Shown one piece after another: positions 7,889 to 25,969 of a stretch of DNA of 26,491 bases; the first letter of the stretch is position 1, and the number at the start of each line of letters is the position of its first letter. Origin of the DNA: an uncultured archaeon. Its GTDB lineage: Archaea; Iainarchaeota; Iainarchaeia; Iainarchaeales; CSSED10-239. The stretch is taken from positions 1 through 26,491 of the forward strand of contig CAZQEL010000012.1 of the NCBI GenBank assembly GCA_964591795.1, in the 5' to 3' direction. The notes under the pieces are model-generated. The model had not been told where the DNA came from. It saw nothing but the letters and a program-made list of their open reading frames with translations, and ran no database searches. The translations under genes and the position numbers were made by a program.

Positions 7889-8051
7889 ATTGCGCATTTT
7901 ATTATTTTTTATACGCTGGGATTGCGCAATTTAGCTTTATTTTTTAATACTTTTTTAGGTTATCTAGAAAGTCCTTTAATTATAAGGGTTTAAGGATTAT
8001 TTTTATCTGCGCAATTTGTGTTTTTTTATTAATGATTATTGCGCATTTTAG
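7889..8051. promoter_or_regulatory. Four ATTGCGCA(A/T)TTT boxes in two pairs (putative operators) upstream of the RelA/SpoT-domain gene
   Basis: TGCGCA cores sit at 7891-7896, 7923-7928, 8008-8013 and 8040-8045, giving spacings of 32, 85 and 32 bp. I saw this GC-rich palindromic hexamer nowhere else in the window. A TATA-like tttataaata follows the last box, about 25 nt before the ATG at 8089. Confidence 0.55.
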
Positions 8052-8088
8052 TTTAATTTATAAATACGTCTATTCTATATATATTATT

Positions 8089-9153
8089 ATGAGTATAGTT
8101 GATAATAAATTTTCAAAATCAGAAATAAATCGAGCAGGTAATATTTTATGCAATGACAAAAATTATTCCTCTGAAGAAATTAATAATGCTTTAGAAGTTG
8201 TAAGTTATTGGAAATCAATACATAATTATCCTTTAAATATTTTTAAAAATAGATTAAGTAGAATATCTAAAAAAATAGATGGAAATGCATTATCTGCTCA
8301 AAGATTAAAGAGAGTTTCATCTATAATTTCAAAATTACAAAGAAAATATTATAATAATTTACCTACAATGAAATTAACTCAAATGCAAGATATTGCAGGT
8401 TGTAGAGTTGTTTTATCTAATTTATCACAAGTAAGAGAGTTATATGAAAAATATTATCTTAAAGGAAATTTAAAGCACACTTTAGTAAATGAAAAAAATT
8501 ATATTCAAAATCCAAAATTAGATGGATATAGAAGTATTCATTTAATTTATAAATATACAAGTGATAAAGGTAAAAAAGAATATAATGATTTACTTGTAGA
8601 AATACAAATTAGATCTAAAATACAGCACATTTGGGCAACTGCAGTAGAAACTGTTGATTTTTTTACAAAACAAGCTATAAAATCTAATCAAGGTAATAAA
8701 AATTGGATGTATTTTTTTAAACTTGTAAGTTCCGCATTTGCAATGATTGAAAAATCAACTTTAATTCCTGGTGTTTCTCAAAATGAGAAAGGTTTGTTTT
8801 TAGAAATTAAAAAAAAAGAGATAGAATTAGATGTTATAAAACAAATGACTCAATGGTTTAAATCTTTAAAATTTTTTGATAATTTTAAAAAGAATCAGAA
8901 AATGCATTTTTTTCTTTTAGAATTAGATATTATTACTGAAAAATTAAATATATCTGCATATACTAAAAATCAAGAAAAAGAGGCTATGTTGGCATACTCT
9001 AAGGCTGAAAAAAAGATTTATAATAAACAAGATTATGATGTTGTTTTAGTTAGTGCAGATAATGTTAAAAGTTTAAAAAAAGCGTATCCTAATTATTTTT
9101 TAGATACTAAAGAATTTTTAAAATTCTTAAATATAATTATAAAGAAATACTAA
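8089..9153 (+). CDS. RelA/SpoT-domain nucleotide pyrophosphokinase (small alarmone synthetase / toxSAS-like) with a C-terminal extension of about 130 aa
   Basis: Motifs MQDIAGCRVVL, GYRSIHLIYKY and LVEIQIRSKIQHIWATAVE. The track ORF starts at 8032, but its first 19 codons overlap the fourth TGCGCA box and the TATA-like element. I therefore prefer the ATG at 8089 (MSIVDNKFSKSEINRAG). Confidence 0.8.
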   Translation: MSIVDNKFSKSEINRAGNILCNDKNYSSEEINNALEVVSYWKSIHNYPLNIFKNRLSRISKKIDGNALSAQRLKRVSSIISKLQRKYYNNLPTMKLTQMQDIAGCRVVLSNLSQVRELYEKYYLKGNLKHTLVNEKNYIQNPKLDGYRSIHLIYKYTSDKGKKEYNDLLVEIQIRSKIQHIWATAVETVDFFTKQAIKSNQGNKNWMYFFKLVSSAFAMIEKSTLIPGVSQNEKGLFLEIKKKEIELDVIKQMTQWFKSLKFFDNFKKNQKMHFFLLELDIITEKLNISAYTKNQEKEAMLAYSKAEKKIYNKQDYDVVLVSADNVKSLKKAYPNYFLDTKEFLKFLNIIIKKY

Positions 9154-9167
9154 AAATACTAAATGCT

Positions 9168-9680
9168 ATGATTCATAGAAATTATTTTATTCAAGGAAGA
9201 ATATTAATAGAAATATATGAAGATGAAGTATTAATATTAAATCCAAGTAAGCTTCTTTTTAATTTTAAGGATTTTGGAAAACTTAGTGTTTTAAGAAACC
9301 TTATTTTAGCAGGGTGTTTACAGAGAACAGATCTTATTGAAAAAATAGGTTCCGGTATTAAACGAATAAAAAAACTTTCTCCAAGTGTTAGGTTTAATAT
9401 AGATACTGATTGGTTTAGTGTTATATTTAAGAGAAAAACTTTTTCTATTAAATCTACTGTGAATGTCGGTGTAAAAGACACTGTAAGATTAAGTTTAAAT
9501 CAAATAAAAATATTAACTTTAATTAAAGATAATGGTGGTATTACTATTGAAAAATTAAGTGATGATATTGATATAAATGTAAGAAATATTAAAAAAAATA
9601 TATTGAAATTAAAATAATTTGGTTTATTAGAAAGAATTGGTTCAGATAAGGCTGGATATTGGAAAGTTATTGAAAAGTAA
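9168..9680 (+). pseudogene. 3' fragment of a COG2865-type (HATPase_c_4 + wHTH) gene, lacking the AlbA_2 N-terminus and carrying an in-frame TAA at 9615-9617
   Basis: It begins mid-domain (MIHRNYFIQGRILIEIYEDEVLILNPSKL...RNLILAGCLQRTDLIEKIGSGIKRI). After the TAA the same frame continues FGLLERIGSDKAGYWKVIEK*, the typical wHTH C-terminus of this family. It is a paralogue of 12591..13250. Confidence 0.65.
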
Positions 9681-9724: not shown

Positions 9725-10330
9725 TTATAATAATAAAAGTTTACCATAATCTGTTAAATAAAGGAGAACACTTTTTTCTTCAATTAATCCTTTTTCTTTA
9801 AAATCTCTTATATTATTATAAATTGCTGTTCTTCCAAGATTAAATTTATCTGAATTAGCTAAATCTGGTAACGAAATTGCTTTTTTAGAAATTTCTTCTA
9901 GCAAGTCATAAGCTCTTTTTGATATTTCAAAAGAAAGCTTAGGAATAACTACCATTTGGTTTATTTCTTGTGTAAAATAAAGAATTTCTTTAATTTTATT
10001 ACTTCTAGCATAACTTCCAAGCATTATACCAATAGACTTAGATTTTCTTCCAGCAGTAATGTCTACATATATTTCATTTTTTTCTTCATTATATATTTTA
10101 TCTATATTTTGAATAACTTCTTTTGCAATTTCATATATTTCATATAGGTTTGTTTTAATTTCTTTAAATTCTATATGTTTAAAAGTATTTTTTAGTTTTT
10201 CTTTAGTTTGCTTTTGAGTATCATCTGGTTGTTTATCCATAACTAGATAAATAATATCAGGACCTATTCTTGTTATTGCTCCAACCATTGGAGTAAATGA
10301 ATATGTATTTGTTAAAAGTATTTTTTTCAT
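9725..10330 (-). CDS. CARF-like Rossmann domain + C-terminal winged-helix regulator (Csa3-like)
   Basis: N-terminal MKKILLTNTYSFTPMVGAI beta-strand start. The IYVDITAGRKSKSIGIMLG block matches the D-x-T-x-G-x-K CARF signature. The C-terminal LGRTAIYNNIRDFKEKGLIEE is a wHTH. The track start at 10393 adds 21 residues; the internal ATG at 10330 fits the domain boundary better. Confidence 0.55.
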   Translation of the reverse strand: MKKILLTNTYSFTPMVGAITRIGPDIIYLVMDKQPDDTQKQTKEKLKNTFKHIEFKEIKTNLYEIYEIAKEVIQNIDKIYNEEKNEIYVDITAGRKSKSIGIMLGSYARSNKIKEILYFTQEINQMVVIPKLSFEISKRAYDLLEEISKKAISLPDLANSDKFNLGRTAIYNNIRDFKEKGLIEEKSVLLYLTDYGKLLLL

Positions 10331-10508
10331 ATGTTTTTCACTGTAATATATGTTGTCTAATATCTTTTTAAATGTATTTTTTATTAACTTCATTCACAAT
10401 TAAGTGTATTTATATACCTTTTTTTAGATTACTTTAAAAATACTTCTGTGCTATTTATTATATATTAATACAGAATAAAGTGTACTGTACCCAGGAGTGA
10501 GATCTAAA

Positions 10509-11756: not shown

Positions 11757-12425
11757 TTGAAAATGAAACTTCCAATAAACCCTAAAAAGTTACTAGAATC
11801 AGACTTAATTGAAAAAGAAAGATTAGAACTTAAAAAAGGTTTTAACCCTGAATCAATTATACATAAAATCACTGCTTTTGCAAATGATTTTAATAATTGG
11901 GGTGGAGGATATATTTTAATTGGAGTTAATGATAATAAAGAAGTTGAAGGTATTAATAAATATGAAATAGATTCAATTTTAAAAAAAATAATTGAACTTT
12001 GTAATAAAATAAACCCCACTTATTTTCCTGTTATTGAACCTTTTGAATATAATAACAAACATATACTAATTCTTTATTGCCCTGGTGGGTCAGAAAGGCC
12101 CTATAAAGCACCAAAATCTTTAGTAAAACCTTATGATTATAAATTATATATAAGGCATGGTCCTTGCACAGTTATAGCTAATTATAAAGAAGAAACAGAA
12201 TTAATTACTTTAAGTGTTATTCCTTTTGATGATAGAATTAATCATAAGGCAAGCATTGATGATTTAGATGATTCTTTAATAAATAAATACTTAAAAGAAA
12301 CAAACTTAAATTTAAAAGAATTATCAAAAATAGATATTTGTAAAAGTTTAAACATAGTTGATGGGTCAAAAGAATATTTAAAACCAAAAAATATAGGTAT
12401 ATTAATGTTTTGTAAAACTCCATAA
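11757..12425 (+). CDS. AlbA_2 (Schlafen-like) DNA-binding domain segment of a COG2865-type putative regulator
   Basis: ESDLIEKERLELKKGFNPESIIHKITAFANDFNNWGGGYILIGVNDNKEVEG matches the AlbA_2 signature. It ends at TAA 12423-12425, but the frame continues stop-free for 55 codons into 12591..13250. Confidence 0.75.
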   Translation: MKMKLPINPKKLLESDLIEKERLELKKGFNPESIIHKITAFANDFNNWGGGYILIGVNDNKEVEGINKYEIDSILKKIIELCNKINPTYFPVIEPFEYNNKHILILYCPGGSERPYKAPKSLVKPYDYKLYIRHGPCTVIANYKEETELITLSVIPFDDRINHKASIDDLDDSLINKYLKETNLNLKELSKIDICKSLNIVDGSKEYLKPKNIGILMFCKTP

Positions 12426-12590
12426 AAATTTATTCAAACCACTTTTATTGAAACTATTATTTTTTTTGATGAAATAGGAGATAAATTTGAAGAAAATAAA
12501 TTTGCTGGAGATATAATTTCACAAATACAAAATTCTTTAGATTATATTAAAAATAAAGTAATTAGTGAAAGAGTTGAAAAAATAGATGGT

Positions 12591-13250
12591 ATGGCTAAAA
12601 GTTTAAGATATTTTTCATATCCTTATCAAGCTATAAAAGAAGCTTTAGTTAATGCTGTTTATCATAAAAGTTATGAAGAGAACGTACCTGTTAAAATAAG
12701 AGTTGAACTTGATAGAATAGATATAGTTTCTTGTCCAGGGCCTCTTCCTCCATTAAATAAAGATAATATTAATAATGATGTTGTAATTTCTAGAAGATAT
12801 AGAAACAGAAGAATTGGTGAATTTTTAAAAGAATATAATTTAACTGAAGGAAAAAATACTGGATTTAGAAAAATCCGAAATGCTCTTAAAAATAATGGTT
12901 CACCTAAACCTATATTTATAACAGATGAAGATAGGGTTCAGTTTATTACAAGAATAAAGATTCATCCTAAATTTAAACAAAATTTTAACTTAGTTCAAGT
13001 TACCCCGCAAGTTACCCCGCAAGCTAGAATTAAAATAATTTTAGAATTTTGTAAAATTGAAAGAAATAGAGACGAAATTCAAACTAAGGTAGATATCAAG
13101 GATAGAGAATATTTCAGATCTAAAATATTAAACCCATTAATAAAAGAAGACTTAATTTCTCAAACAATTCCAGAAAAACCAAACAGTCCAAATCAAAAAT
13201 ACTTAATTACAGAAAAAGGTGTTAATTTTTTAAAAAAAGTAAGTAATTAA
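12591..13250 (+). CDS. HATPase_c_4-like + C-terminal wHTH segment of the same COG2865-type gene
   Basis: YPYQAIKEALVNAVYHKSYEENVPVKIRVELDRIDIVSCPGPLP and RRYRNRRIGEFLKEYNLTEGKNTGFRKI. It is in frame with 11757..12425. Confidence 0.75.
   Translation: MAKSLRYFSYPYQAIKEALVNAVYHKSYEENVPVKIRVELDRIDIVSCPGPLPPLNKDNINNDVVISRRYRNRRIGEFLKEYNLTEGKNTGFRKIRNALKNNGSPKPIFITDEDRVQFITRIKIHPKFKQNFNLVQVTPQVTPQARIKIILEFCKIERNRDEIQTKVDIKDREYFRSKILNPLIKEDLISQTIPEKPNSPNQKYLITEKGVNFLKKVSN
12999..13022 (+). repeat. Perfect 2 x 12-nt tandem duplication (gttaccccgcaa), encoding VTPQVTPQ
   Basis: Read directly: caa gttaccccgcaa gttaccccgcaa gct. It is conspicuously GC-rich for this window. Confidence 0.9.
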
Positions 13251-13493: not shown

Positions 13494-16400
13494 ATGAGTG
13501 AAAATATTGTTCAAAATCAAGCAATTAAAAAAATTACAGGACCTTGTATTATTTTAGCTGGTGCTGGAACTGGAAAAACAACCACAATACGTCAAAAAAT
13601 TAAATATTTAATAGATAATAAGCACTATAAACCTGAAGAAATACTTTGTTTAACCTTTTCAAACGAAGCTACAAATAATTTAAAAGAAAAAATATTTGAA
13701 GATATTAAAAGCGCTTCTAATTCTTTAACAATAAAGACATTTCATTCTTTTTGTTCTGAAGTAATCAAAGAAAACTATTCTTTTTTTAATATTAATTTTG
13801 ATTTTAAAATAATACAACCAGATGACTCTAAAGTACTAATACATAAATACTTTAATATTGAACCATATAATGCAAATAGATATGTTCATACTATTCAAAA
13901 CTGTAAAGATTTTGGAATAGCTATTGAAGATATTACTAATTATATAAAAAACATCTTAGAACCAAAACTTCTTGTTAAAACAACAATTGATAATATTAAA
14001 GCCTTTTATCTTGAAAGAGAAAAAGAACTTAGAACTATTTACAAAGAAATTAAGCATGAAGACAAAGATATTAGAAAAAACTCAAAAGAATACAAAAAAG
14101 AACTAAAAAAATATATTGAAGATTATAAAAATTATATTAAATTTAATAAATTTGTTAAAACATGGAACGAATATGAACAATTAAAAAAAGAAAAGAACTA
14201 TTTAGACTATGGTGACTTAAACAAACTAGTTTTAGAATACTTTAATGAAAATGGTGCTTCTAAATACACAGAACAATACAAATATGTGTTTGTTGATGAA
14301 TTTCAAGATACAAACAAACTTCAATTTGATTTAATTAAACATATTGCAGAACATAGAAACATAACTGTTGTTGGAGATATGAATCAATCCATTTATGGAT
14401 TTAGAGGAGCTTATAAAGAAAGCTTTGAAAAATTTGAAGAAAATTTTAAAGTTTCAAAAGAAACTGATGTTTTTTATTTAAATAAGTCATACAGGTCACC
14501 AAACACAGTTTTAAATATAGCCTATGAGTTAATAAAGAACAACTATGAAGAAAACAGCAAAGAATGTAAACTAATACAAAATGCAGATAACAGAGATGGA
14601 GAAAAAGTAAAAGTAGTCTCCTTTATTGATCAATATGAAGAAGCAAGATATATTTCTGATGAAGTTGAAAAAGAAATTGAAAATAAAATACCATTAGACC
14701 AAATTGCTATTCTAATAAGAACACATAAACAAGCAGAAATTATAAAACAAGCTCTTATTCTTAAAAAAATACCTTTTGTATACTCAGGAAAAACAAATAT
14801 TCTAGAGTATGCTGAAATTAAAACTGTTGTTTCATACTTATCAATACTTAATAACTTAATTAACAGAACAGCTACTGGTGAACAAGCATGGTGGAATCTT
14901 TTTCATTATAATAATACCTTAGACCCAGTTGACTCACTTAATATAAGTCACTATTTAAAAGCACATAGAAAAGAAAATCTATCCATTGACACACTACTTT
15001 TAGAATCTTTAACTGAATTAACACCAAAGGGTCAGAAAATAGTTAATAGAGTAGTTGAAAAATTAACTATTTTAACCAAACTATCAAATAAACCACTTCC
15101 AGAACTTGTTTTAGACATATATGATATCACTGGTTTAAATAGAAATTTTACATATAAAAGAACAATTGAAAACACAGAACATTTACTTAATTTAAAACAA
15201 TTTTATGAAATTACTAAAAATTATTATGAATTTCATGATAAATCTTTAATTTCATTTATTGATTATCTTGAAATGTTAGATAAACTTGATGTAAATATAC
15301 AAGCAAATCAAGTATCAAACCTTAATGCTATAAAATTAATGACAATTCATGCTTGTAAAGGACTTCAGTTTGAAAAAGTAATACTAACTAACCTTGCTGA
15401 AAAAAGATTTCCACTAGATAGAACACATAATGATCCATTAATTCCAAAAGAATTAATTGAAGATCGTAGACTAGAAATTGAAAGATTTAAACTTGAAAAT
15501 AAAGATCTTTCTTCAATAGATTTAGAAAAAGCAACAGCAGCAAGACTAAAAGAATACGAAAAAGAAATACTTCTACTTGACGAAAGACGTCTTTGTTATG
15601 TTGGATTTACAAGAGCAAGTAAATCATTAACATTAACTTTTGCAAAATCATATAGTTCTTCAGATAAAGCTTCTAAAAATTCAGTATTTTTAGATGAAAT
15701 TAAATATTTAGAAAGCAAAGATGTAGAATATACTGAAAATCTTGAAGATATATCAACAGTAATGGCTCCAAACTCAAAAGCTGAACAATTTAAATCTCTT
15801 TTAAAAAATCAACTTGTTTCTTCATTAGATTCAGATGATTTAGAATCATTAATACAAAGACTTAGTAAATACTTTGCAGTTAGAGAAAAACAATCCTCTC
15901 TTCAAGAAATAATAAACAACGTTGTTCTTGATAAAGAAGAACTACAAAAAGACATTTTAAAATATCAAGAAAATATAAACTCAATTAAATTTAATAAAGC
16001 TGAATTTAAATTCAGCCCATCATCAATTATGACCTATTTAGAATGTCCTAAAAAATTTGAACTTTCAGTAATATATAATATGCCACAAATTGGTGCTTTT
16101 GATGAAATTGAAGAAGAAGATCTAGACTCATCAGGTTCTGCTCTTAACAAAGGTAGTTACCTTCACAAAATTTTAGAAATTTTTATAATAAATAAAAAAA
16201 CCAACATAGAAGACATACAAACCATTGCAAAAGATCTTTTAAAAACAGAATTTTTAGCAAAAATCTATCAAAAAGACTATTTAGAAATAATAGAGCTTTG
16301 TAAAGTTTTTTTAGAAAGAAACCTTGAAAAAATATCCTCCTCTAAAAAACAAGAAACAGAGATTGATATCAACTTTGAGCTTGATGGTTATAGGATACAC

Positions 16401-16817
16401 GGTAAAGTTGATAGAGTAGATTATTTAAAAGGCGATTTAGAAGGTTTTGTTGATATAATTGATTACAAGACAAACAAGAGTGCAATTCCTCTTGAAAAAA
16501 GAAAAGTTCAGCTTGGTCTTTACGCTCTAGGGTTAATGAACCAAGGGTACAAGATAAACAAGATTGTTTTAGACATGTTAAAGCTTGAGTCACCTGTGGA
16601 AATGATAATCGACAACGACAATCAAGACGAAGTCACCGCATCTTTAGGATGTAACAAACTATCAAACTTCACTATCACAGAGTTTAAGCAACATATCTTG
16701 GACACATGTAAAAATATAGAAAAAGATTACGAGCACGATTTCAAGGTTATCGAATCAAACAGTCCATGTAAGTTTTGTGGTTACAAGTTTTATTGCCCGA
16801 AGTGGAGAACTGAATAA
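13494..16817 (+). CDS. UvrD/PcrA-type SF1 helicase fused to a C-terminal Cas4/AddB-like PD-(D/E)XK nuclease with a four-Cys cluster
   Basis: Helicase motifs: ILAGAGTGKTTT (Walker A), VFVDEFQDTN, VGDMNQSIYGFRGA, LNKSYRSPNTVL, MTIHACKGLQFEKVIL and RRLCYVGFTRASKSL. Nuclease motifs: YLECPKKF, GSYLHKILE, GKVDRVDY...VDIIDYKT, QLGLYA and CKFCGYKFYCP (C..CxxCx5C). Confidence 0.9.
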   Translation: MSENIVQNQAIKKITGPCIILAGAGTGKTTTIRQKIKYLIDNKHYKPEEILCLTFSNEATNNLKEKIFEDIKSASNSLTIKTFHSFCSEVIKENYSFFNINFDFKIIQPDDSKVLIHKYFNIEPYNANRYVHTIQNCKDFGIAIEDITNYIKNILEPKLLVKTTIDNIKAFYLEREKELRTIYKEIKHEDKDIRKNSKEYKKELKKYIEDYKNYIKFNKFVKTWNEYEQLKKEKNYLDYGDLNKLVLEYFNENGASKYTEQYKYVFVDEFQDTNKLQFDLIKHIAEHRNITVVGDMNQSIYGFRGAYKESFEKFEENFKVSKETDVFYLNKSYRSPNTVLNIAYELIKNNYEENSKECKLIQNADNRDGEKVKVVSFIDQYEEARYISDEVEKEIENKIPLDQIAILIRTHKQAEIIKQALILKKIPFVYSGKTNILEYAEIKTVVSYLSILNNLINRTATGEQAWWNLFHYNNTLDPVDSLNISHYLKAHRKENLSIDTLLLESLTELTPKGQKIVNRVVEKLTILTKLSNKPLPELVLDIYDITGLNRNFTYKRTIENTEHLLNLKQFYEITKNYYEFHDKSLISFIDYLEMLDKLDVNIQANQVSNLNAIKLMTIHACKGLQFEKVILTNLAEKRFPLDRTHNDPLIPKELIEDRRLEIERFKLENKDLSSIDLEKATAARLKEYEKEILLLDERRLCYVGFTRASKSLTLTFAKSYSSSDKASKNSVFLDEIKYLESKDVEYTENLEDISTVMAPNSKAEQFKSLLKNQLVSSLDSDDLESLIQRLSKYFAVREKQSSLQEIINNVVLDKEELQKDILKYQENINSIKFNKAEFKFSPSSIMTYLECPKKFELSVIYNMPQIGAFDEIEEEDLDSSGSALNKGSYLHKILEIFIINKKTNIEDIQTIAKDLLKTEFLAKIYQKDYLEIIELCKVFLERNLEKISSSKKQETEIDINFELDGYRIHGKVDRVDYLKGDLEGFVDIIDYKTNKSAIPLEKRKVQLGLYALGLMNQGYKINKIVLDMLKLESPVEMIIDNDNQDEVTASLGCNKLSNFTITEFKQHILDTCKNIEKDYEHDFKVIESNSPCKFCGYKFYCPKWRTE

Positions 16818-16905: not shown

Positions 16906-17775
16906 ATGGTAGATAAAAAAAATAAAATTAGATTGTTTGAACAGACTAAAGTTAGAACTGTATGGGATGAAGAAAATCAAAAATGGTGGTTTTCTGTACT
17001 AGATATTGTTGGAATATTAACTGACCAGCCTAATTTTCAAAAGGCGCGTAATTATTGGAAATGGTTAAAAAATAAATTAAAATCAGAAGGAAATGAAACG
17101 GTTAGTAATACTAACCAGTTGAAAATGAAAGCAGAAGATGGCAAAATGCGTCTAACTGATGTGGCTTGTACTGAACAACTTTTAAGACTTATTCAATCAA
17201 TTCCTTCAAAAAAAGCAGAACCATTCAAGATATGGCTTGCAAAAGTAGGTAATGAAAGAATTGACGAAACAATCGATCCAGAAATTTCAATTGATAGAGC
17301 AATTCAAAATTATTGTAGATTAGGTTATAGTGAAAATTGGATAAATCAAAGAATAAAATCTATTGAAATAAGAAAAGCTTTAACAGATGAATGGGATAAA
17401 AGTGAGGTTAAAAGAGGAAAAGAATATGCAGAATTAACTGATTTAATGAGTAAGACTTGGAGTGGAATGACTACACTTGAATATAAAAAATATAAAAATT
17501 TGAAAAAAAAGAATCTGCGAGATAATATGACAAACACAGAGCTTATTTTAAATATGCTCTCAGAAGTTGCAACAACAGATATTTCTATGGTTCGCAGTCC
17601 AATAGGTCTTCAAGAAAGTAAGAAAGTTGCTAAAGAAGGTGCAAAAACAGCAAAAGTTGCAAGAGAACAACTTGAAAAAAGTACAGGAAAGAGAGTAATA
17701 AGTAAGTCAAACGTTAAAAAATCTGATAAAAACATTTTAGATGATAGATCTAAAATTAATAAATTTGATAAATAA
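16906..17775 (+). CDS. Bro-N domain protein (phage antirepressor / DinD-like family)
   Basis: FEQTKVRTVWDEENQKWWFSVLDIVGILTD...QLKMKAEDGKMRLTDVACTEQLLRLIQSIPSKKAEPFKIWLAKVGNERIDE is a widely conserved Bro-N family sequence. G+C is visibly higher than in neighbouring genes. Confidence 0.8.
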   Translation: MVDKKNKIRLFEQTKVRTVWDEENQKWWFSVLDIVGILTDQPNFQKARNYWKWLKNKLKSEGNETVSNTNQLKMKAEDGKMRLTDVACTEQLLRLIQSIPSKKAEPFKIWLAKVGNERIDETIDPEISIDRAIQNYCRLGYSENWINQRIKSIEIRKALTDEWDKSEVKRGKEYAELTDLMSKTWSGMTTLEYKKYKNLKKKNLRDNMTNTELILNMLSEVATTDISMVRSPIGLQESKKVAKEGAKTAKVAREQLEKSTGKRVISKSNVKKSDKNILDDRSKINKFDK

Positions 17776-17928: not shown

Positions 17929-18222
17929 ATATAAATATTAATATAAATATTTATATATTTATTGTTTTTTAAAATGTTGAAAATAGGATTTATAAAAAAT
18001 AATAACTTTATAAAGACTACGTCAACATATATATGTATATGATGCAAAATAATCAATTAATTATGAGTATTTATAACCTATTAGATAACTTTGGACATTT
18101 CTTTATTCATAAAGATAGATTGTGTTTACTTTTGAATAAATTAGATGTAGATTATGATTTAGATAAAATAATTATAAAATTAAATAATTGAAGGTAATAT
18201 AAATAATATATGTGGTGTTGTG

Positions 18223-18786
18223 ATGATAAAAAATAAAAAAAATGATAAGATTGCTTTGATAGTTACTTTAACAATTATTGGTTTTTTAGTTATAATAGGT
18301 ATAATCGCATTACAATCACCTAGTACTAGTTCATCAGAAACAATATATACAAAACAATTATCTAAAGAAAATATTAATGTAATTAATAATAAAAGTTTAG
18401 ATAATAAATATTTAGAAAAGCTTGATAATGGATATATTGAAGTAAAGATACCTAAAAAAATATCTGATAAATTATATTTAGATAATAATCATGTAATAAT
18501 AAACTATTCTTTTGATGGATATAATGATGAATTAATTGTGAATATAAATAATATTGATGCAAAATATTATTTTAATATAAAACAAATTACTTCTTTTGTT
18601 ATAAAAGGTAATAATAATGATATACGTATTAAAAATTGTAATAACATAGAAAGTATAACTATTATGGGTGATTATGATATAGTAAATTTAGATGAAGATA
18701 GTTGTATTGAAAGATTATTTTGGAAAGATACATTATATATATCAGGAGATCATAGTGATGTGGTTGGTGGAGATGATTGGGATTAA
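18223..18786 (+). CDS. Signal-anchored / secreted protein with a C-terminal repetitive beta-rich region, function unknown
   Basis: N-terminal TM segment IALIVTLTIIGFLVIIGIIAL followed by a Ser/Thr linker. The C-terminal part, FVIKGNNNDIRIKNCNNIESITIMGDYDIVNL, resembles short beta-helix-type repeats. A GTG at 18220 or the ATG at 18223 could be the start. Confidence 0.55.
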   Translation: MIKNKKNDKIALIVTLTIIGFLVIIGIIALQSPSTSSSETIYTKQLSKENINVINNKSLDNKYLEKLDNGYIEVKIPKKISDKLYLDNNHVIINYSFDGYNDELIVNINNIDAKYYFNIKQITSFVIKGNNNDIRIKNCNNIESITIMGDYDIVNLDEDSCIERLFWKDTLYISGDHSDVVGGDDWD

Positions 18787-18945
18787 GGTGTTTTTATTTT
18801 AAATAATAATGAAATATCAAATTCAGAAAAAATAGTTTGAAATTTAGTATATATAAATTATATTTATACAAAAAATATTTTTTTGGTGTGTAGATTGGTA
18901 AATAAATATATTTTTTATGTAAATAGAAAATAAAGGAAAAATAAT

Positions 18946-19185
18946 ATGACTAAAAAAAAAGAAAAAATGTCAAAATCAGAAAAAAATAGTAACATTGCTT
19001 TTATTTCATCTATAATTATTTGTATTTTTGCATATATATATTTAGTTAATCCTATTCTTAATGAATTTAATATTGGTATTGGTTGGAAGATTGGGTTTAT
19101 TATTTTTGAATTTTTTGTTTGTTTAGGATTAATTTCTTTAATTCTTAATACTGGAGATGCTATGAAAAAAGGAGTAGATAATTAA
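18946..19185 (+). CDS. Small membrane protein (2 TM)
   Basis: A lysine-rich N-terminus followed by two hydrophobic helices. An SD-like aaggaaaaa lies upstream. Confidence 0.5.
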   Translation: MTKKKEKMSKSEKNSNIAFISSIIICIFAYIYLVNPILNEFNIGIGWKIGFIIFEFFVCLGLISLILNTGDAMKKGVDN

Positions 19186-19286
19186 AGATTTAATTTAGAA
19201 AAGGTTTAATACAGATAGAATACAATTAAATAAATTAAAATGGGAAAAATTCATGGTGAAATTAATATTGCAAAGGTTAAAAAAAT

Positions 19287-19640
19287 ATGAATAAAAAAGA
19301 AAGAATTAAAGAAATTAAATTGCTTAAAAAAGAAGGTTATTCGATTAAAAAAATAATTTCAGAAGGTTTTACTAAATATGAATTATTAAAAGCAGGATAT
19401 TCTAAAAAAGATTTATATATAATTAATCAAAAAAAGACTAATTTAGGTATTTTAAGTATAATATTTGCATGTGGATCTTTATTTTTGTTACCTCCATTTT
19501 TAGGGTTGGCAGGAATAATATTAGGGATTATTGGGATTACAAAAAATGAAGGTGCCACAGCAATAATTGGATTAGTATTAAGTTTCATATTTCCTTTTAT
19601 TGGAATGATATTAGGATTAATGGTTTGGGTTTATTTATAG
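19287..19640 (+). CDS. Small membrane protein: N-terminal triple GYS/GFT short repeat, C-terminal DUF4190-like 2-TM region
   Basis: N-terminal KKEGYSIKKIISEGFTKYELLKAGYSKKDLY. The C-terminal part is GILSIIFACGSLFLLPPFLGLAGIILGIIGITKNEGATAIIGLVLSFIFPFIG. Confidence 0.55.
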   Translation: MNKKERIKEIKLLKKEGYSIKKIISEGFTKYELLKAGYSKKDLYIINQKKTNLGILSIIFACGSLFLLPPFLGLAGIILGIIGITKNEGATAIIGLVLSFIFPFIGMILGLMVWVYL

Positions 19641-19752
19641 GTACTTTTTACATATTTACTCTTCAATATGTTATTGAAAAGGTTAAAAATCATACTAAAA
19701 TAGTTAGATATTTAAATGAATTATAGTTATAATTATAGTATAGTTATATTAT

Positions 19753-20133
19753 ATGAATAAAGTATATTGTAGTGAATGTGGAAAAAAAATATCTAAAAAT
19801 GCAGTTATTTGTTTAAACTGTGGAGGAAAACAAAATCTTGATTCAGTAAAAACGAAAACTAATATTAAAATTAATCAAAGTTTAATAAAAATGGTTAAAT
19901 TAGTAGAGTTTGGTATTGTTCTTGGTATTCTTTTTAATTTTTTTGCATATATTTATTCTTGGAAAGAAGATTATTATAAATTTTGGATTATGCTTGTAAT
20001 TTATTTTCTTTTATCTATAACCTTCTCAAAATTAGGTAATTATAGTATCTATTTTGCACTTTTTTTAATGCTAATTATAATTACTGATTTTTTATCAAAA
20101 AAGGATTCTGAGTTTTATATTTGGAAAAAATAA
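19753..20133 (+). CDS. Zinc-ribbon membrane protein
   Basis: VYCSECGKKISKNAVICLNCGG (CxxC-x10-CxxC) followed by hydrophobic helices. It is a tandem paralogue of the next gene. Confidence 0.6.
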   Translation: MNKVYCSECGKKISKNAVICLNCGGKQNLDSVKTKTNIKINQSLIKMVKLVEFGIVLGILFNFFAYIYSWKEDYYKFWIMLVIYFLLSITFSKLGNYSIYFALFLMLIIITDFLSKKDSEFYIWKK

Positions 20134-20153
20134 TAATTTTAATGTGAGTGTAT

Positions 20154-20504
20154 ATGGGATTAATTTATTGTAGAGAATGTGGAAAAAAAATATCAGATAC
20201 TGCTGATGTTTGTGTTAAATGTGGAGCATCTGTAGACACAGGTAGTAAAATTACAGATAAAAGATTAATTATTGAAAAAAAAAGAAAATCAACCGCTATA
20301 ATATTAGCTATATTTTTTGGTCCTATTGCTTGGACTTATACTTGGAAGTTTGATAAAGCTAAATTTTGGGCTGGTATAATTGTTGATTTGTTATTCTTTT
20401 GGACTATTTTTATTCCTATAGCTATTACTATTTGGGCAATTATAGATATGTCTATAAAAGATGATGATAAATTCGAAAATTATCATAAATATAAAGCAAG
20501 TTAA
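20154..20504 (+). CDS. Zinc-ribbon membrane protein (paralogue)
   Basis: IYCRECGKKISDTADVCVKCGA followed by 2 TM helices (AIILAIFFGPIAW..., IFIPIAITIWAIID). The track start is the GTG at 20148; an ATG at 20154 is an alternative. Confidence 0.6.
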   Translation: MGLIYCRECGKKISDTADVCVKCGASVDTGSKITDKRLIIEKKRKSTAIILAIFFGPIAWTYTWKFDKAKFWAGIIVDLLFFWTIFIPIAITIWAIIDMSIKDDDKFENYHKYKAS

Positions 20505-23663: not shown

Positions 23664-23776
23664 ATATAAAATGAATTAATATATTATGAATATTAATGTA
23701 TGTGGTATCTAAATAAATTTATATTATACATATAATTAAAAATTATAGTTGTAAAAAAATAAAATAAAAATAATTG

Positions 23777-25969
23777 ATGAAAATGGAACTTAATATTAAT
23801 TTAGAAAATTGTTATGGTATAAAAAAATTAGATATGAAATTTAATTTTAATGTCAATAATACTTTTGCAATATATGCTCCGAATGGTAGTATGAAAACAT
23901 CATTTGCAAAAACATTTTTAGATTTAAGTGATAATTATAAAAAATCAGAAGATTTAATAAATCCTGAAAGAAATACTTTAAGAATAATTAAAGATGAAAA
24001 TGATAAAGATTTAGATTGTAATTCTATTTTTGTTATAAAATCATATGATGAAGATTATGCTTCAAAAAAAGTATCAACATTATTAGCAAATCCAAAATTA
24101 AGAAAAAAATATGAATTAATTGTGTTTGATATTACAAAATTAAAACAAAGGTTTTTAAAAGAGTTAAAAGATATATCAAAATCAAGAAAAAATATAGAAG
24201 ATGAATTGTATAAAGTTTTTAATGAAAATGAATTTGTTGGTGTTTTCAAAAAGATTAAAAGTTTAATATGTGATGTAGATTATAATTTTTCAAATTTAAA
24301 TTATGATTTATTTTTTAATGATAAAGCATTTGATTTTTTAAAAACAAGTGGGTTTAAATTAAAGCTTAAAGAATATATTGAGATTTATGATTCTTTATTA
24401 AAAAATTCTAGATTCTTAAAAAATGGATTTAATCATTATAAAGCAAATAAAATAAGTAAAGAATTGAGTAAGGATAGTTTTTTTAATGCAAAACATTCTT
24501 TAAATTTATTTGATGCAAAAACTAATAAAAATATTGAAGTAAAAAGTATAATAAACTTTGATGATATCATTGAGAAAGAAAAAAATTTAATTTTAAGTAG
24601 TAATGAATTAAAATTAAAATTTAAAAGTATTGATTCTAAAATAAAAAATCAAGAATTAGAAGAATTACGTGAATTTTTAAAAGAAAATAAAGAAATTATA
24701 ATTGAATTGAATGATTTAGTTAATTTTGCTCAAAAAATATGGGTGTCTTATATTATTAATAATAATAAAGAGTTATTTGAAGAATTATTTATTAAAGCTG
24801 AGAAAGATATTAAAAACATTTTAATTGAGGTTAAAAAAGAACAAAAAGATTGGAAAGAAGTAATTTCTGAATTTAATAAAAGATTTTTTGTGCCTTTTAA
24901 AATTAAAATAAAGAATATTGAAGATATTGTACTAAAAGGTGAAACTATACCATTTTTTGAATATGAATTTAAAGATAAAGATAATAATACTAATACATCT
25001 AAATCTGAACTTATGACTGTATTAAGTAGTGGTGAAAAGAAAGCTTTATATTTATTAAATATTATTTTTGAAGTAAAAGCAAGAGATAAATTAAGTCAAA
25101 AAACAATATTTATTATAGATGATATTGCTGATTCTTTTGATTATAAAAATAAATATGCAATTATTCAATATTTAAAAGAAATTGCTGAAAATAGTCACTT
25201 TTATCAAATAATTTTAACACATAATTTTGATTTTTTTAGAACAATTCAAAGTAGATTTGTAAGTTATAAAAATTGTTTAATTGCTTCAAAAGATAATTCT
25301 AAAATTAAATTAATATCTAGTAAATATATAAAAAACCCTTTTATAAATGATTGGAAGCTTCATAAATTTAAAGAAGATTCTAAGTTTATTGCATCGATTC
25401 CATTTGTAAGAAATTTAGTTGAATATTGTGGTAATATAAATTATTATGATGTATTAACATCTTGTTTACATATTAAAGAAAATACAAACAAATTAAATGT
25501 AGGTAAAATTAGAACTATTTTTGAAAATGTTTTAAATTTAACTTTTTCTTTAGATAATGAAGATAAATTAATAAAAAATTTAGTTTTTGAAGTTTGCAAT
25601 GATATTTTAAGTGAAAATATCACAGTTAGTGATTTAGATAAAAAGATCACATTATCTATTGGAATTCGTTTACAAGCAGAATTATATTTAATTAATAAAA
25701 TAAAACTATTTGAAAATATAGCAAAACTATATGAAATTTGTAAAGAAAAAAATAAATCTCAAACATATTTTTTATATAGTAAATTTTGTGAATATTTCCC
25801 TAATAATTATAACACAAAATCAATTTTAGATAAAGTAAATTTAATAATACCTGAAAATATACATGTGAATTCATTTATGTATGAACCAATACTTGATATG
25901 GGTTGTAATTCTTTAAAGCAATTATATAAAGATGTGTTTGAATTAAATAAAGAACAAATTAAATTATAA
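23777..25969 (+). CDS. Rad50/SMC-style ABC ATPase (AAA_13 / RloA-PrrC-like architecture) with an atypical Walker A
   Basis: N-terminal P-loop FAIYAPNGSMKTSFAKTF and a coiled-coil insert of about 300 aa. This is followed by the ABC signature LSSGEKKALYLLNIIFE, Walker B TIFIIDDIADSFD and the H-loop region QIILTHNFDFF. A C-terminal domain of about 230 aa is unassigned. The track start is the TTG at 23774; ATGs occur at 23777 and 23783. Confidence 0.75.
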   Translation: MKMELNINLENCYGIKKLDMKFNFNVNNTFAIYAPNGSMKTSFAKTFLDLSDNYKKSEDLINPERNTLRIIKDENDKDLDCNSIFVIKSYDEDYASKKVSTLLANPKLRKKYELIVFDITKLKQRFLKELKDISKSRKNIEDELYKVFNENEFVGVFKKIKSLICDVDYNFSNLNYDLFFNDKAFDFLKTSGFKLKLKEYIEIYDSLLKNSRFLKNGFNHYKANKISKELSKDSFFNAKHSLNLFDAKTNKNIEVKSIINFDDIIEKEKNLILSSNELKLKFKSIDSKIKNQELEELREFLKENKEIIIELNDLVNFAQKIWVSYIINNNKELFEELFIKAEKDIKNILIEVKKEQKDWKEVISEFNKRFFVPFKIKIKNIEDIVLKGETIPFFEYEFKDKDNNTNTSKSELMTVLSSGEKKALYLLNIIFEVKARDKLSQKTIFIIDDIADSFDYKNKYAIIQYLKEIAENSHFYQIILTHNFDFFRTIQSRFVSYKNCLIASKDNSKIKLISSKYIKNPFINDWKLHKFKEDSKFIASIPFVRNLVEYCGNINYYDVLTSCLHIKENTNKLNVGKIRTIFENVLNLTFSLDNEDKLIKNLVFEVCNDILSENITVSDLDKKITLSIGIRLQAELYLINKIKLFENIAKLYEICKEKNKSQTYFLYSKFCEYFPNNYNTKSILDKVNLIIPENIHVNSFMYEPILDMGCNSLKQLYKDVFELNKEQIKL

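Follow-up and report, generated by a model that had tools for sequence, protein, structure and literature searches.

A probable fused CapRel-type toxin-antitoxin gene with a conserved upstream box array in an Iainarchaeota contig

The window analysed here is the 26,491-nucleotide (nt) contig CAZQEL010000012.1 of an uncultured archaeon of the Iainarchaeota (GenBank assembly GCA_964591795.1), and it is very AT-rich (about 22% GC). A gene on its forward strand, at positions 8089–9153, encodes a member of the CapRel family of toxic small alarmone synthetases (toxSAS), to judge from its sequence, its profile matches, its fold and its functional residues. The product is probably a fused, single-chain toxin-antitoxin (TA) of the CapRel type, and this forms part of what we consider the best overall explanation of the locus. 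The gene joins a known family that is structurally and mechanistically characterised and already present in defence catalogues, and it is not categorically new. The coding region and the sequence directly in front of it are as follows.

8089–9153, forward strand: CapRel-type fused toxSAS gene, 354 residues, most likely the true coding region (homologue lengths, PADLOC profile PDC-S33, PDB entries 7ztb and 9erv, Foldseek).
8032–8088, forward strand: in-frame 19-codon 5′ extension, probably untranslated, which holds the promoter and the proximal box (no homologue aligns here).

The closest characterised relative is CapRelSJ46, encoded by a gene from the Salmonella phage SJ46 (PDB 7ZTB, 9ERV). 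A phmmer search of all Protein Data Bank chains finds 7ztb_A and 9erv_A (annotated as 'RelA/SpoT family protein') as the top matches, with an E value of 1.1e-46 and residues 24–367 of the query aligned to residues 12–367 of the chain. RelQ/YjbM and RelP/YwaC come next (E about 1e-13, core only), and RelA chains are found at E about 0.7. By BLASTP, CapRelSJ46 and the window protein share 32% identity over 368 columns. A profile made from 46 members of the clade described below matches the CapRelSJ46 chains with 210 bits (E=4.4e-61). In comparison, RelQ and RelP are matched with about 55 bits, over the core only.

The predicted fold leads to the same relative. The AlphaFold2 model of the protein has a mean predicted local distance difference test score (pLDDT) of 83.7 and a predicted template modelling score (pTM) of 0.77. 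With this model, Foldseek places 9erv_A and 7ztb_A at the top (E about 1e-23, TM score 0.68–0.71, about 360 columns), and the labels of these entries are 'Salmonella tRNA pyrophosphokinase CapRel' and 'CapRel bound to Bas11 Gp54'. The next matches are RelQ and RelP, again over the core only (TM score to the target 0.6–0.79, about 190 residues). The rms deviation between the model and the open crystal form is 8.5–9.9 Å in Foldseek at a TM score of about 0.7, compatible with a different domain arrangement.

The PADLOC profile PDC-S33 matches the window protein from end to end, with 390 bits (E=2.4e-117). It also matches CapRelSJ46 itself with 290 bits, so that the two proteins belong to one profile family. 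The PHROG 4773 model is matched over its full length (E=1.9e-97). Both PDC-S33 and PHROG 4773 are catalogue models without an attached function, and our literature search found no paper that mentions PDC-S33. With the end-to-end match to CapRelSJ46, the fold and the conserved residues, the original prediction of a CapRel-type fused toxSAS, which had been made from the letters of the DNA, is supported.

The public annotation of the protein is 'ppGpp synthetase/RelA/SpoT-type nucleotidyltransferase', and its sole Pfam domain is RelA_SpoT (PF04607, residues 90–203 of a 373-residue open reading frame (ORF), E=1e-19). Both would suit a housekeeping small alarmone synthetase (SAS) of the RelQ/RelP/RelV type with a role in stress signalling, and the catalytic core fold is indeed shared with RelQ and RelP (PDB 5DEC, 6FGK, 6EWZ). 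We find this reading hardly credible, however. The protein reaches 65.6 bits with the NCBIfam equivalog model for YjbM/RelQ (NF053588), for which the cut-off is 320. RelQ and RelP align to the core only, and they lack a conserved C-terminal autoinhibitory domain. Whereas housekeeping enzymes are single domains of about 200 residues, about 150 residues follow the catalytic core here. Moreover, the genomic contexts of the gene are scattered, which suggests mobility. Clustering with housekeeping synthetases, the outcome that the original prediction had named as speaking against it, was therefore not found, given the scores for YjbM (65.6 versus 320 bits) and for RelQ/RelP as compared to CapRelSJ46 (about 55, core only, versus 210 bits). 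The absence of a hydrolase domain, as first predicted, agrees with the Pfam scan of the protein, which detects no hydrolase, TGS or ACT domain. The long RelA/SpoT homologues (Rel, RelA and SpoT) carry an HD hydrolase together with TGS/ACT domains, while PF04607 is the only domain found in the window protein.

The gene had initially been drawn as the ORF at 8032–9153 on the forward strand. This ORF is present (373 residues), and every motif quoted for it (DIAGCRVV, GYRSIHL, EIQIRSKIQHIWA, HFFLLELDIITEKLNISAYT and VVLVSADNVKSLKKAYPNYFLDTKEF) is real, but the start at 8032 has to be given up. The true start is almost certainly the ATG at 8089, corresponding to M20 of the long ORF, which gives the protein of 354 residues. 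Almost all of the 120 best homologues have 353–358 residues, public gene calls give exactly the 354-residue protein, and the PDC-S33 alignment starts at residue 20 of the 373-residue ORF. No homologue aligns with the 57-nt extension. It contains an upstream box (box 4, 8040–8049) and a TATA-like box (8057–8066), and the position of the latter relative to 8089 follows the TTTAWA geometry of the archaeal loci (see below). The longer start was rejected on the basis of the homologue lengths, the start of the profile and the positions of these two boxes.

The organization of the protein is given below, with residues numbered as in the 354-residue protein and mapped to CapRelSJ46 by pairwise alignment.

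8089–8733, forward strand: toxSYNTH (RelA/SpoT nucleotidyl/pyrophosphotransferase) domain, about residues 1–215, with R72 (8302–8304), R106, the G-loop tyrosine Y147 and E171-x-Q173-x-R175 (Pfam RelA_SpoT).
8734–8892, forward strand: helical linker or anchor, residues 216–268 (AlphaFold2 helices 204–220, 233–247, 249–258 and 261–266; aligns to the anchor helices of CapRelSJ46).
8893–9057, forward strand: pseudo-zinc-finger-like domain (pZFD), residues 269–323, predicted sensor and autoinhibitory domain (AlphaFold2 strand-strand-helix-strand).
9085–9096, forward strand: YXXY neutralisation motif, Y333-P-N-Y336 (YPNY in the translation; aligns to Y352/Y355 of CapRelSJ46).
9100–9150, forward strand: C-terminal helical extension, residues 338–354 (AlphaFold2 helix 338–353, pLDDT 93–94).

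The window protein is in the same length class as CapRelSJ46 (354 and 373 residues, respectively), and the order of the domains is the same, with toxSYNTH followed by the anchor helices, the pseudo-zinc finger, the YXXY motif and the C-terminal helix. In the AlphaFold2 model, the C-terminal region has strands at residues 272–280, 285–292 and 316–322 and helices at 293–310, 326–332 and 338–353. This topology agrees with that of the published CapRelSJ46 antitoxin, which has three strands, a helix between strands 2 and 3, and a helical extension (PMC9712102). There are no cysteines among residues 269–323, and as a result the segment is assigned as a pseudo-zinc finger.

The functional residues of CapRelSJ46 are retained in the window protein. 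In CapRelSJ46, ATP is coordinated by R79 and R116, and the G-loop residue Y155 is required for defence (PMC9712102). These residues correspond to R72, R106 and Y147. In the closed state of CapRelSJ46, the YXXY motif (Y352 and Y355), scaffolded by A77, V338, L339, A341 and A351, blocks the adenine site, and the protein becomes constitutively toxic when the motif or scaffold residues are mutated (PMC9712102). The two tyrosines correspond to Y333 and Y336, and the scaffold residues to A70, V319, L320, S322 and A332. Conservation was assessed in the 46 clade members and in a set of 24 more distant bacterial and viral homologues (bacterial and prophage sequences from IMG/VR, and SJ46). R72, R106, Y147, V319, L320, A332, Y333, P334, N335 and Y336 are invariant in the clade, but A70 and S322 are not. 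R72, R106, Y147, V319 and L320 are invariant in the 24 distant homologues as well, where A332, Y333 and Y336 are near-invariant. E171, Q173 and R175 are invariant in both sets.

The YXXY motif also bears on the substrate. Neutralisation by a YXXY-containing pZFD is reported to go with toxSAS enzymes that pyrophosphorylate tRNA, while (pp)pApp synthetases are neutralised differently and have lost the motif (PMC11782079). Since YPNY is invariant in the clade, the analogy favours tRNA as the substrate. FaRel2/ATfaRel2 and PhRel2/ATphRel2 are tRNA-pyrophosphorylating systems of this kind, with a pZFD/PAD1 antitoxin that closes off the donor site for ATP by a 3-10 helix carrying YXXY (PMC11782079). 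Their antitoxins are separate proteins that act in trans, however, and no full-length similarity to them is detectable in the PDB searches. Another acceptor is conceivable, as the toxSYNTH fold is shared, the acceptor substrate is not fixed by sequence alone, and the structural matches next in rank are RelQ and RelP. The activated protein could then make (pp)pApp or (p)ppGpp and deplete ATP, like FaRel or Tas1, with no modification of tRNA. We regard such a toxic alarmone synthetase as quite unlikely, because the nearest characterised relative pyrophosphorylates tRNA (PMC9712102), and the clade keeps the motif that (pp)pApp makers lose.

The gene has no conserved partner. Neighbouring genes were clustered for 79 non-redundant loci (from 80 loci in species representatives of GTDB and several metagenome contigs), using ORFs of at least 70 residues within 2.5 kb and ORFs of 20–110 residues within 500 nt. 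No ORF family is present in more than 5 of the 79 loci within 2.5 kb, and the clusters of small ORFs that appear are pseudo-ORFs produced by conserved DNA boxes. With no neighbour family conserved, the gene is a single-gene module, in line with the initial remark that there is no separate antitoxin. CapRelSJ46 is likewise a single gene without a separate antitoxin. Two ORFs of 23 and 29 residues in the upstream spacer were considered as antitoxins and rejected, as they are not conserved. An HD-domain protein at 2238–2900 was rejected as an antitoxin of the small alarmone hydrolase type. It is a generic phosphohydrolase-like protein (PRK10119-like, below the cut-off), 5 kb away, and is unlinked to the gene in other loci.

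This layout separates the gene from the bicistronic toxSAS systems (FaRel, FaRel2, PhRel, PhRel2 and unfused CapRel), which have a conserved adjacent antitoxin gene. In the bicistronic CapRel/PhRel pairs, for example capRel:aTcapRel of Mycobacterium sp. AB308 (PMC7229694), the toxSYNTH domain is homologous to that of the window protein, and the antitoxin is homologous to its fused C-terminal domain. In contrast, the window gene encodes one polypeptide, and no adjacent antitoxin gene was found in the 79 loci.

To judge from sequence identity, the gene is a member of a tight clade (at least 55% identity) whose carriers are mainly archaea (DPANN and Methanoperedens) and include a few bacteria of the candidate phyla radiation (CPR). 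Archaea account for 72 of the 80 best GTDB loci and bacteria, mostly CPR/Patescibacteria, for the other 8, and the identity of the 80 to the window protein is 53–71%. The archaeal carriers are Woesearchaeota, Nanoarchaeota, Pacearchaeota, Aenigmatarchaeota, Micrarchaeota, Iainarchaeota, Nanohaloarchaea, Methanoperedens/Methanosarcinales and unclassified archaea. A pattern-limited scan matched at least 449 GTDB species representatives. CapRelSJ46, in comparison, belongs to a background of enterobacteria and prophages. A library of clusters at 50% identity contains 1394 relatives at E values of 1e-30 or better, none of them more than 55% identical to the window protein. One reading of this is that the archaeal and CPR clade is mostly collapsed into very few clusters within the large CapRel family.

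Identity between bacterial and archaeal members of the clade reaches 86%. Proteins from metagenome-assembled genomes labelled as bacterial are 81–86% identical to proteins from Aenigmatarchaeota and Iainarchaeota assemblies (locus L024 versus L018, and L015, L017 and L025 versus L018 and L019). This identity reflects either recent transfer between the domains or mis-binned contigs. A viral origin of the window contig was rejected, as there is no exact match in IMG/VR, and the relatives there are 33–43% identical and lack the upstream boxes. In our literature search, CapRel is described only in bacteria and their phages. The search found nothing specific on CapRel in DPANN archaea, and the outcome is the same for a 2024 survey of defence systems that covers archaea. 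It also found no description of an archaeal or DPANN host range, a conserved sensor domain or an operator array for this clade.

The clade and the bacterial CapRels seem to differ in conservation. Among relatives of CapRelSJ46, conservation is lowest in the pZFD, and this has been put down to an arms race with phages (PMC9712102). For the 24 bacterial and prophage homologues, the mean pairwise identity is 0.31 in the pZFD and 0.51 in the core, with a ratio of 0.61. The values for the 46 clade members are 0.69 and 0.77, with a ratio of 0.89. Low conservation of the pZFD is a hallmark of CapRel rather than a strict criterion, and it is not seen in the clade, where the least conserved blocks are residues 21–30 and 251–260. 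The comparison is suggestive of a sensor domain nearly as conserved as the core, unlike in the bacterial and prophage CapRels, with the qualification that the two sets differ in overall divergence. A conserved sensor domain in turn suggests a conserved trigger.

A second difference from CapRelSJ46 lies in front of the gene. The window contains four copies of TGCGCAWTTT upstream of the coding region, at 7891, 7923, 8008 and 8040, with a chance expectation of 0.01. They are followed by a TATA-like box. The box array and an archaeal TATA/leaderless promoter are features of the window clade that are absent from the SJ46 locus.

7891–7900, forward strand: upstream box 1, TGCGCATTTT (motif match, family-wide enrichment).
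7923–7932, forward strand: upstream box 2, TGCGCAATTT, 32 nt after box 1 (motif match, family-wide enrichment).
8008–8017, forward strand: upstream box 3, TGCGCAATTT (motif match, family-wide enrichment).
8040–8049, forward strand: upstream box 4, TGCGCATTTT, 32 nt after box 3, with the start of its GCGCA core 16 nt before the TATA-like box (motif match).
8057–8066, forward strand: TATA-like box TTTATAAATA, starting at -32 from the ATG at 8089 (sequence; geometry of the archaeal loci).

The array is a property of the clade. Its members have 2–4 direct ACCGCGCAA boxes upstream, with the extended form ACCGCGCAA(A/T)(A/T)tGACA. A scan with a weight matrix (consensus taACCGCGCAAAat, often continuing with tTGACA) over the 300 nt upstream of the 79 loci finds 211 sites on the coding strand, or 9.2 per kb, compared to 0.066 per kb elsewhere (an enrichment of about 140-fold). 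There are 13 sites on the opposite strand. Two or more sites are present in 72 of the 79 loci, and successive boxes are spaced by 31–33 or 53–55 nt. For the proximal box, 59 loci have the core at about -48, and the distance from the start of its GCGCAA to the TATA-like hexamer is 14–15 nt. The same layout is found upstream of homologues with 73% and 68% identity. Arrays are also located in L003 (5782–5960), in L005 (5781–5960) and in about 70 further loci, and 7 of the 8 bacterial clade members have at least two boxes. At 25 bacterial and prophage CapRel loci, SJ46 included, the array was not found.

Measured from the ATG equivalent to that at 8089, 65 of 67 archaeal loci have a TTTAWA hexamer between -50 and -18, and for 60 of these the hexamer begins at -30 or -29. 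A TATA-like box at about -30 from the ATG is the geometry of an archaeal promoter with a leaderless or near-leaderless mRNA. On this basis, the sequence implies that the transcript in the window would be leaderless or near-leaderless, from an archaeal-type promoter. The repeated upstream box holds a TTGACA half that resembles a -35 element, and it adjoins the TATA box in archaea.

The boxes are most likely operator sites for a regulator, as far as sequence can tell. They are located upstream of the core promoter as direct repeats, the region has no Rfam match (neither at the gathering score nor at E values up to 1), and its RNA folding is weak and specific to the window. It is unlikely, in our estimate, that they belong instead to a structured RNA in the 5′ leader or are relics of the end of a mobile element. 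The boxes in the window are partly palindromic, and the 216-nt region folds with a z score of -2.1, with box 1 paired to box 4 and box 2 to box 3, as a leader RNA might. However, the boxes in most loci are direct repeats on the coding strand (211 sites versus 13), and the inter-box pairing is therefore not conserved. The TATA-like box is downstream of all the boxes at a fixed -30 or -29, which puts them outside the transcript. A structured RNA or riboswitch was rejected for lack of an Rfam match and for a fold score that is only -2.1 and depends on the palindromy of this window. For a relic of a mobile element, an orphan pair of boxes away from the gene could be cited (L003, 2234–2360), but no flanking terminal repeats are present around the gene. 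The search for ends of a mobile element or target duplications gave only AT-rich noise besides the boxes, and these were rejected as well. The orphan pair, ACTGCGCAAAACGACACTA ... TCTGCGCAAAACGACACTAG, has a separation of 108 nt and is 3.7 kb upstream of the CapRel-type gene of that locus. It is intergenic, without a gene to drive, and a second cassette or a rearrangement may have left it behind.

As to what binds the boxes, the array accompanies the gene from one phylum or domain to another, with no conserved neighbour, and for this reason the CapRel protein itself may be the binder, in an autoregulation of the TA style. A neighbouring Csa3-like protein was rejected as a general binder, since the boxes are conserved and no neighbour is.

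We infer an enzymatic activity, a substrate, a trigger and an abortive infection by analogy with CapRelSJ46, and a binder of the boxes from the way they accompany the gene, and these would fit together as follows. The gene would be expressed from its own archaeal-type promoter, with the TATA-like box at about -32 and a near-leaderless transcript, and the four direct ACCGCGCAA-type boxes in front of it would bind a regulator, possibly the CapRel protein. In the resting state, the C-terminal pZFD would fold back onto the N-terminal toxSYNTH domain, and the YPNY motif would insert between R72 and R106 and block the site of ATP, the pyrophosphate donor. The trigger would be a viral protein, by analogy the major capsid protein or another abundant virion protein, that binds the pZFD and the anchor helices and keeps the protein open. 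The opened toxSYNTH domain would then move pyrophosphate from ATP onto tRNA, at its 3′ CCA terminus. Aminoacylation of the modified tRNAs and hence translation would be blocked, and the infection would be aborted.

Several points weigh against this proposal. The identity to the characterised CapRelSJ46 is only 32%. The pZFD is predicted with moderate confidence (pLDDT 59–80, and 62–63 at the hinge), and its conservation in the clade fits less well with a rapidly evolving viral trigger. Pfam detects no DNA-binding domain in the CapRel-type protein, and autoregulation is purely conjectural. To our knowledge, little has been described of the viruses that infect DPANN archaea or of their capsids.

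The homogeneity of the clade despite its spread could also be that of a selfish cassette. A fused toxin-antitoxin of the addiction type would have spread horizontally between DPANN archaea and CPR bacteria and would persist through autoregulation and post-segregational effects, not through a dedicated role in sensing viruses. Identities of at least 55% over several archaeal phyla and CPR, and of up to 86% between bacterial and archaeal members, are in keeping with this, as is the lack of any representative above 55% identity in the 50% cluster library, if the clade is collapsed into few clusters there. The cassette would have its own conserved operator-like array, like classical type II TA loci, its sensor domain is not hypervariable, and its neighbourhood is never conserved. 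Nonetheless, we consider a purely selfish cassette rather unlikely. The fused CapRels that have been characterised are antiviral (PMC9712102, PMC11578894), and PADLOC lists PDC-S33 as a defence candidate. Neighbours of defence type are found in the window and at L003 (PDC-S13, PDC-S46, a CARF protein and AbiEii). Moreover, with toxin and antitoxin in one chain, the antitoxin cannot be degraded by itself, which makes classical addiction mechanistically awkward.

A further possibility is that the DPANN- and CPR-centred clade is a distinct regulatory and sensing variant. The fused protein would itself occupy the four-box operator of its gene, possibly by means of the unusually conserved pZFD, the fold of which is related to zinc-finger DNA binders. 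TA-style transcriptional autoregulation would then be joined to the sensing of infection through a conserved trigger. The balance is against this variant, though we hold it to be a possibility worth keeping in view.

The surroundings of the gene look like a defence island. Immediately downstream is a remnant of another gene.

9168–9617, forward strand: remnant ORF with HATPase_c_4 and a winged helix-turn-helix (wHTH), truncated at both ends, outside the system and not conserved beside homologues (Pfam, homologue alignment).

This ORF had been described as a truncated Schlafen/AlbA_2-family remnant. The truncation stands at both ends, as about 55–75 N-terminal and about 25 C-terminal residues are missing compared to the nearest homologues. 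The ORF contains no AlbA_2 domain, however, only HATPase_c_4 and wHTH, the domains that come after AlbA_2 in proteins of the Schlafen/AlbA_2 type. Its truncated 5′ end is 14 nt past the CapRel stop codon, from which it is plausible that the CapRel cassette took the place of part of this gene, although no upstream half exists as proof of an insertion. Near the CapRel-type gene, a true AlbA_2 gene is found only at 11757–13250 (forward strand), with AlbA_2 (Schlafen-like), HATPase_c_4 and Fic-like_C/wHTH in about 497 codons and one in-frame TAA (12423–12425). It is a recent pseudogene or contains a sequencing error.

Three PADLOC candidates of the 'PDC-S' type, the CapRel-type gene included, lie within 26 kb. 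PDC-S13 matches a Bro-N domain protein at 16906–17775 on the forward strand (E=4e-123; also PHROG 15286). PDC-S46 matches a protein of 731 residues at 23774–25969 on the forward strand (E=5.5e-231; also PHROG 38705), which has no Pfam domain. At 13494–16817 (forward strand) there is a 1107-residue fusion of a UvrD helicase and a PD-(D/E)XK nuclease, which matches the models of GajB and of the DRT-associated helicase (E about 1e-70), and no GajA-like partner was noticed adjoining it. An orphan Csa3-like protein with CARF and wHTH domains is encoded at 9725–10393 on the reverse strand (TIGR01884, 61.9 bits with a cut-off of 60.2; PADLOC CARF3, E=2.4e-49). No cas genes and no CRISPR array are present in the window, and the scan of the window found no tRNA or rRNA genes. 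Its low GC content, its archaeal-type promoters, the Csa3-like gene and the nearest homologues point to a DPANN-like archaeon as the probable host, and there is no marker gene in the window. Two adjacent small zinc-ribbon proteins are encoded at 19753–20133 and 20148–20504 (forward strand), with a 117-residue repeat-containing ORF in the same stretch. The GC skew at 18000–20500 is very high, up to 0.5.

Only a few immune sensors, CapRel among them, have been shown to recognise a viral protein directly. A tight and abundant clade in DPANN archaea, Methanoperedens and CPR bacteria extends CapRel to hosts with poorly known viruses and defences, and it offers two handles, the conserved sensor domain and the conserved operator array with its fixed promoter geometry. 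For annotation, archaeal genes of this kind are probably mislabelled when called 'ppGpp synthetase', and they are much likelier to be defence toxins than alarmone synthetases. If the clade is indeed a distinct variant, it would be the first tRNA-pyrophosphorylating abortive-infection system targeting translation shown to operate in archaea, and it would pass between ultra-small symbionts of the archaea and of the bacteria along with a promoter that is functional in either domain.

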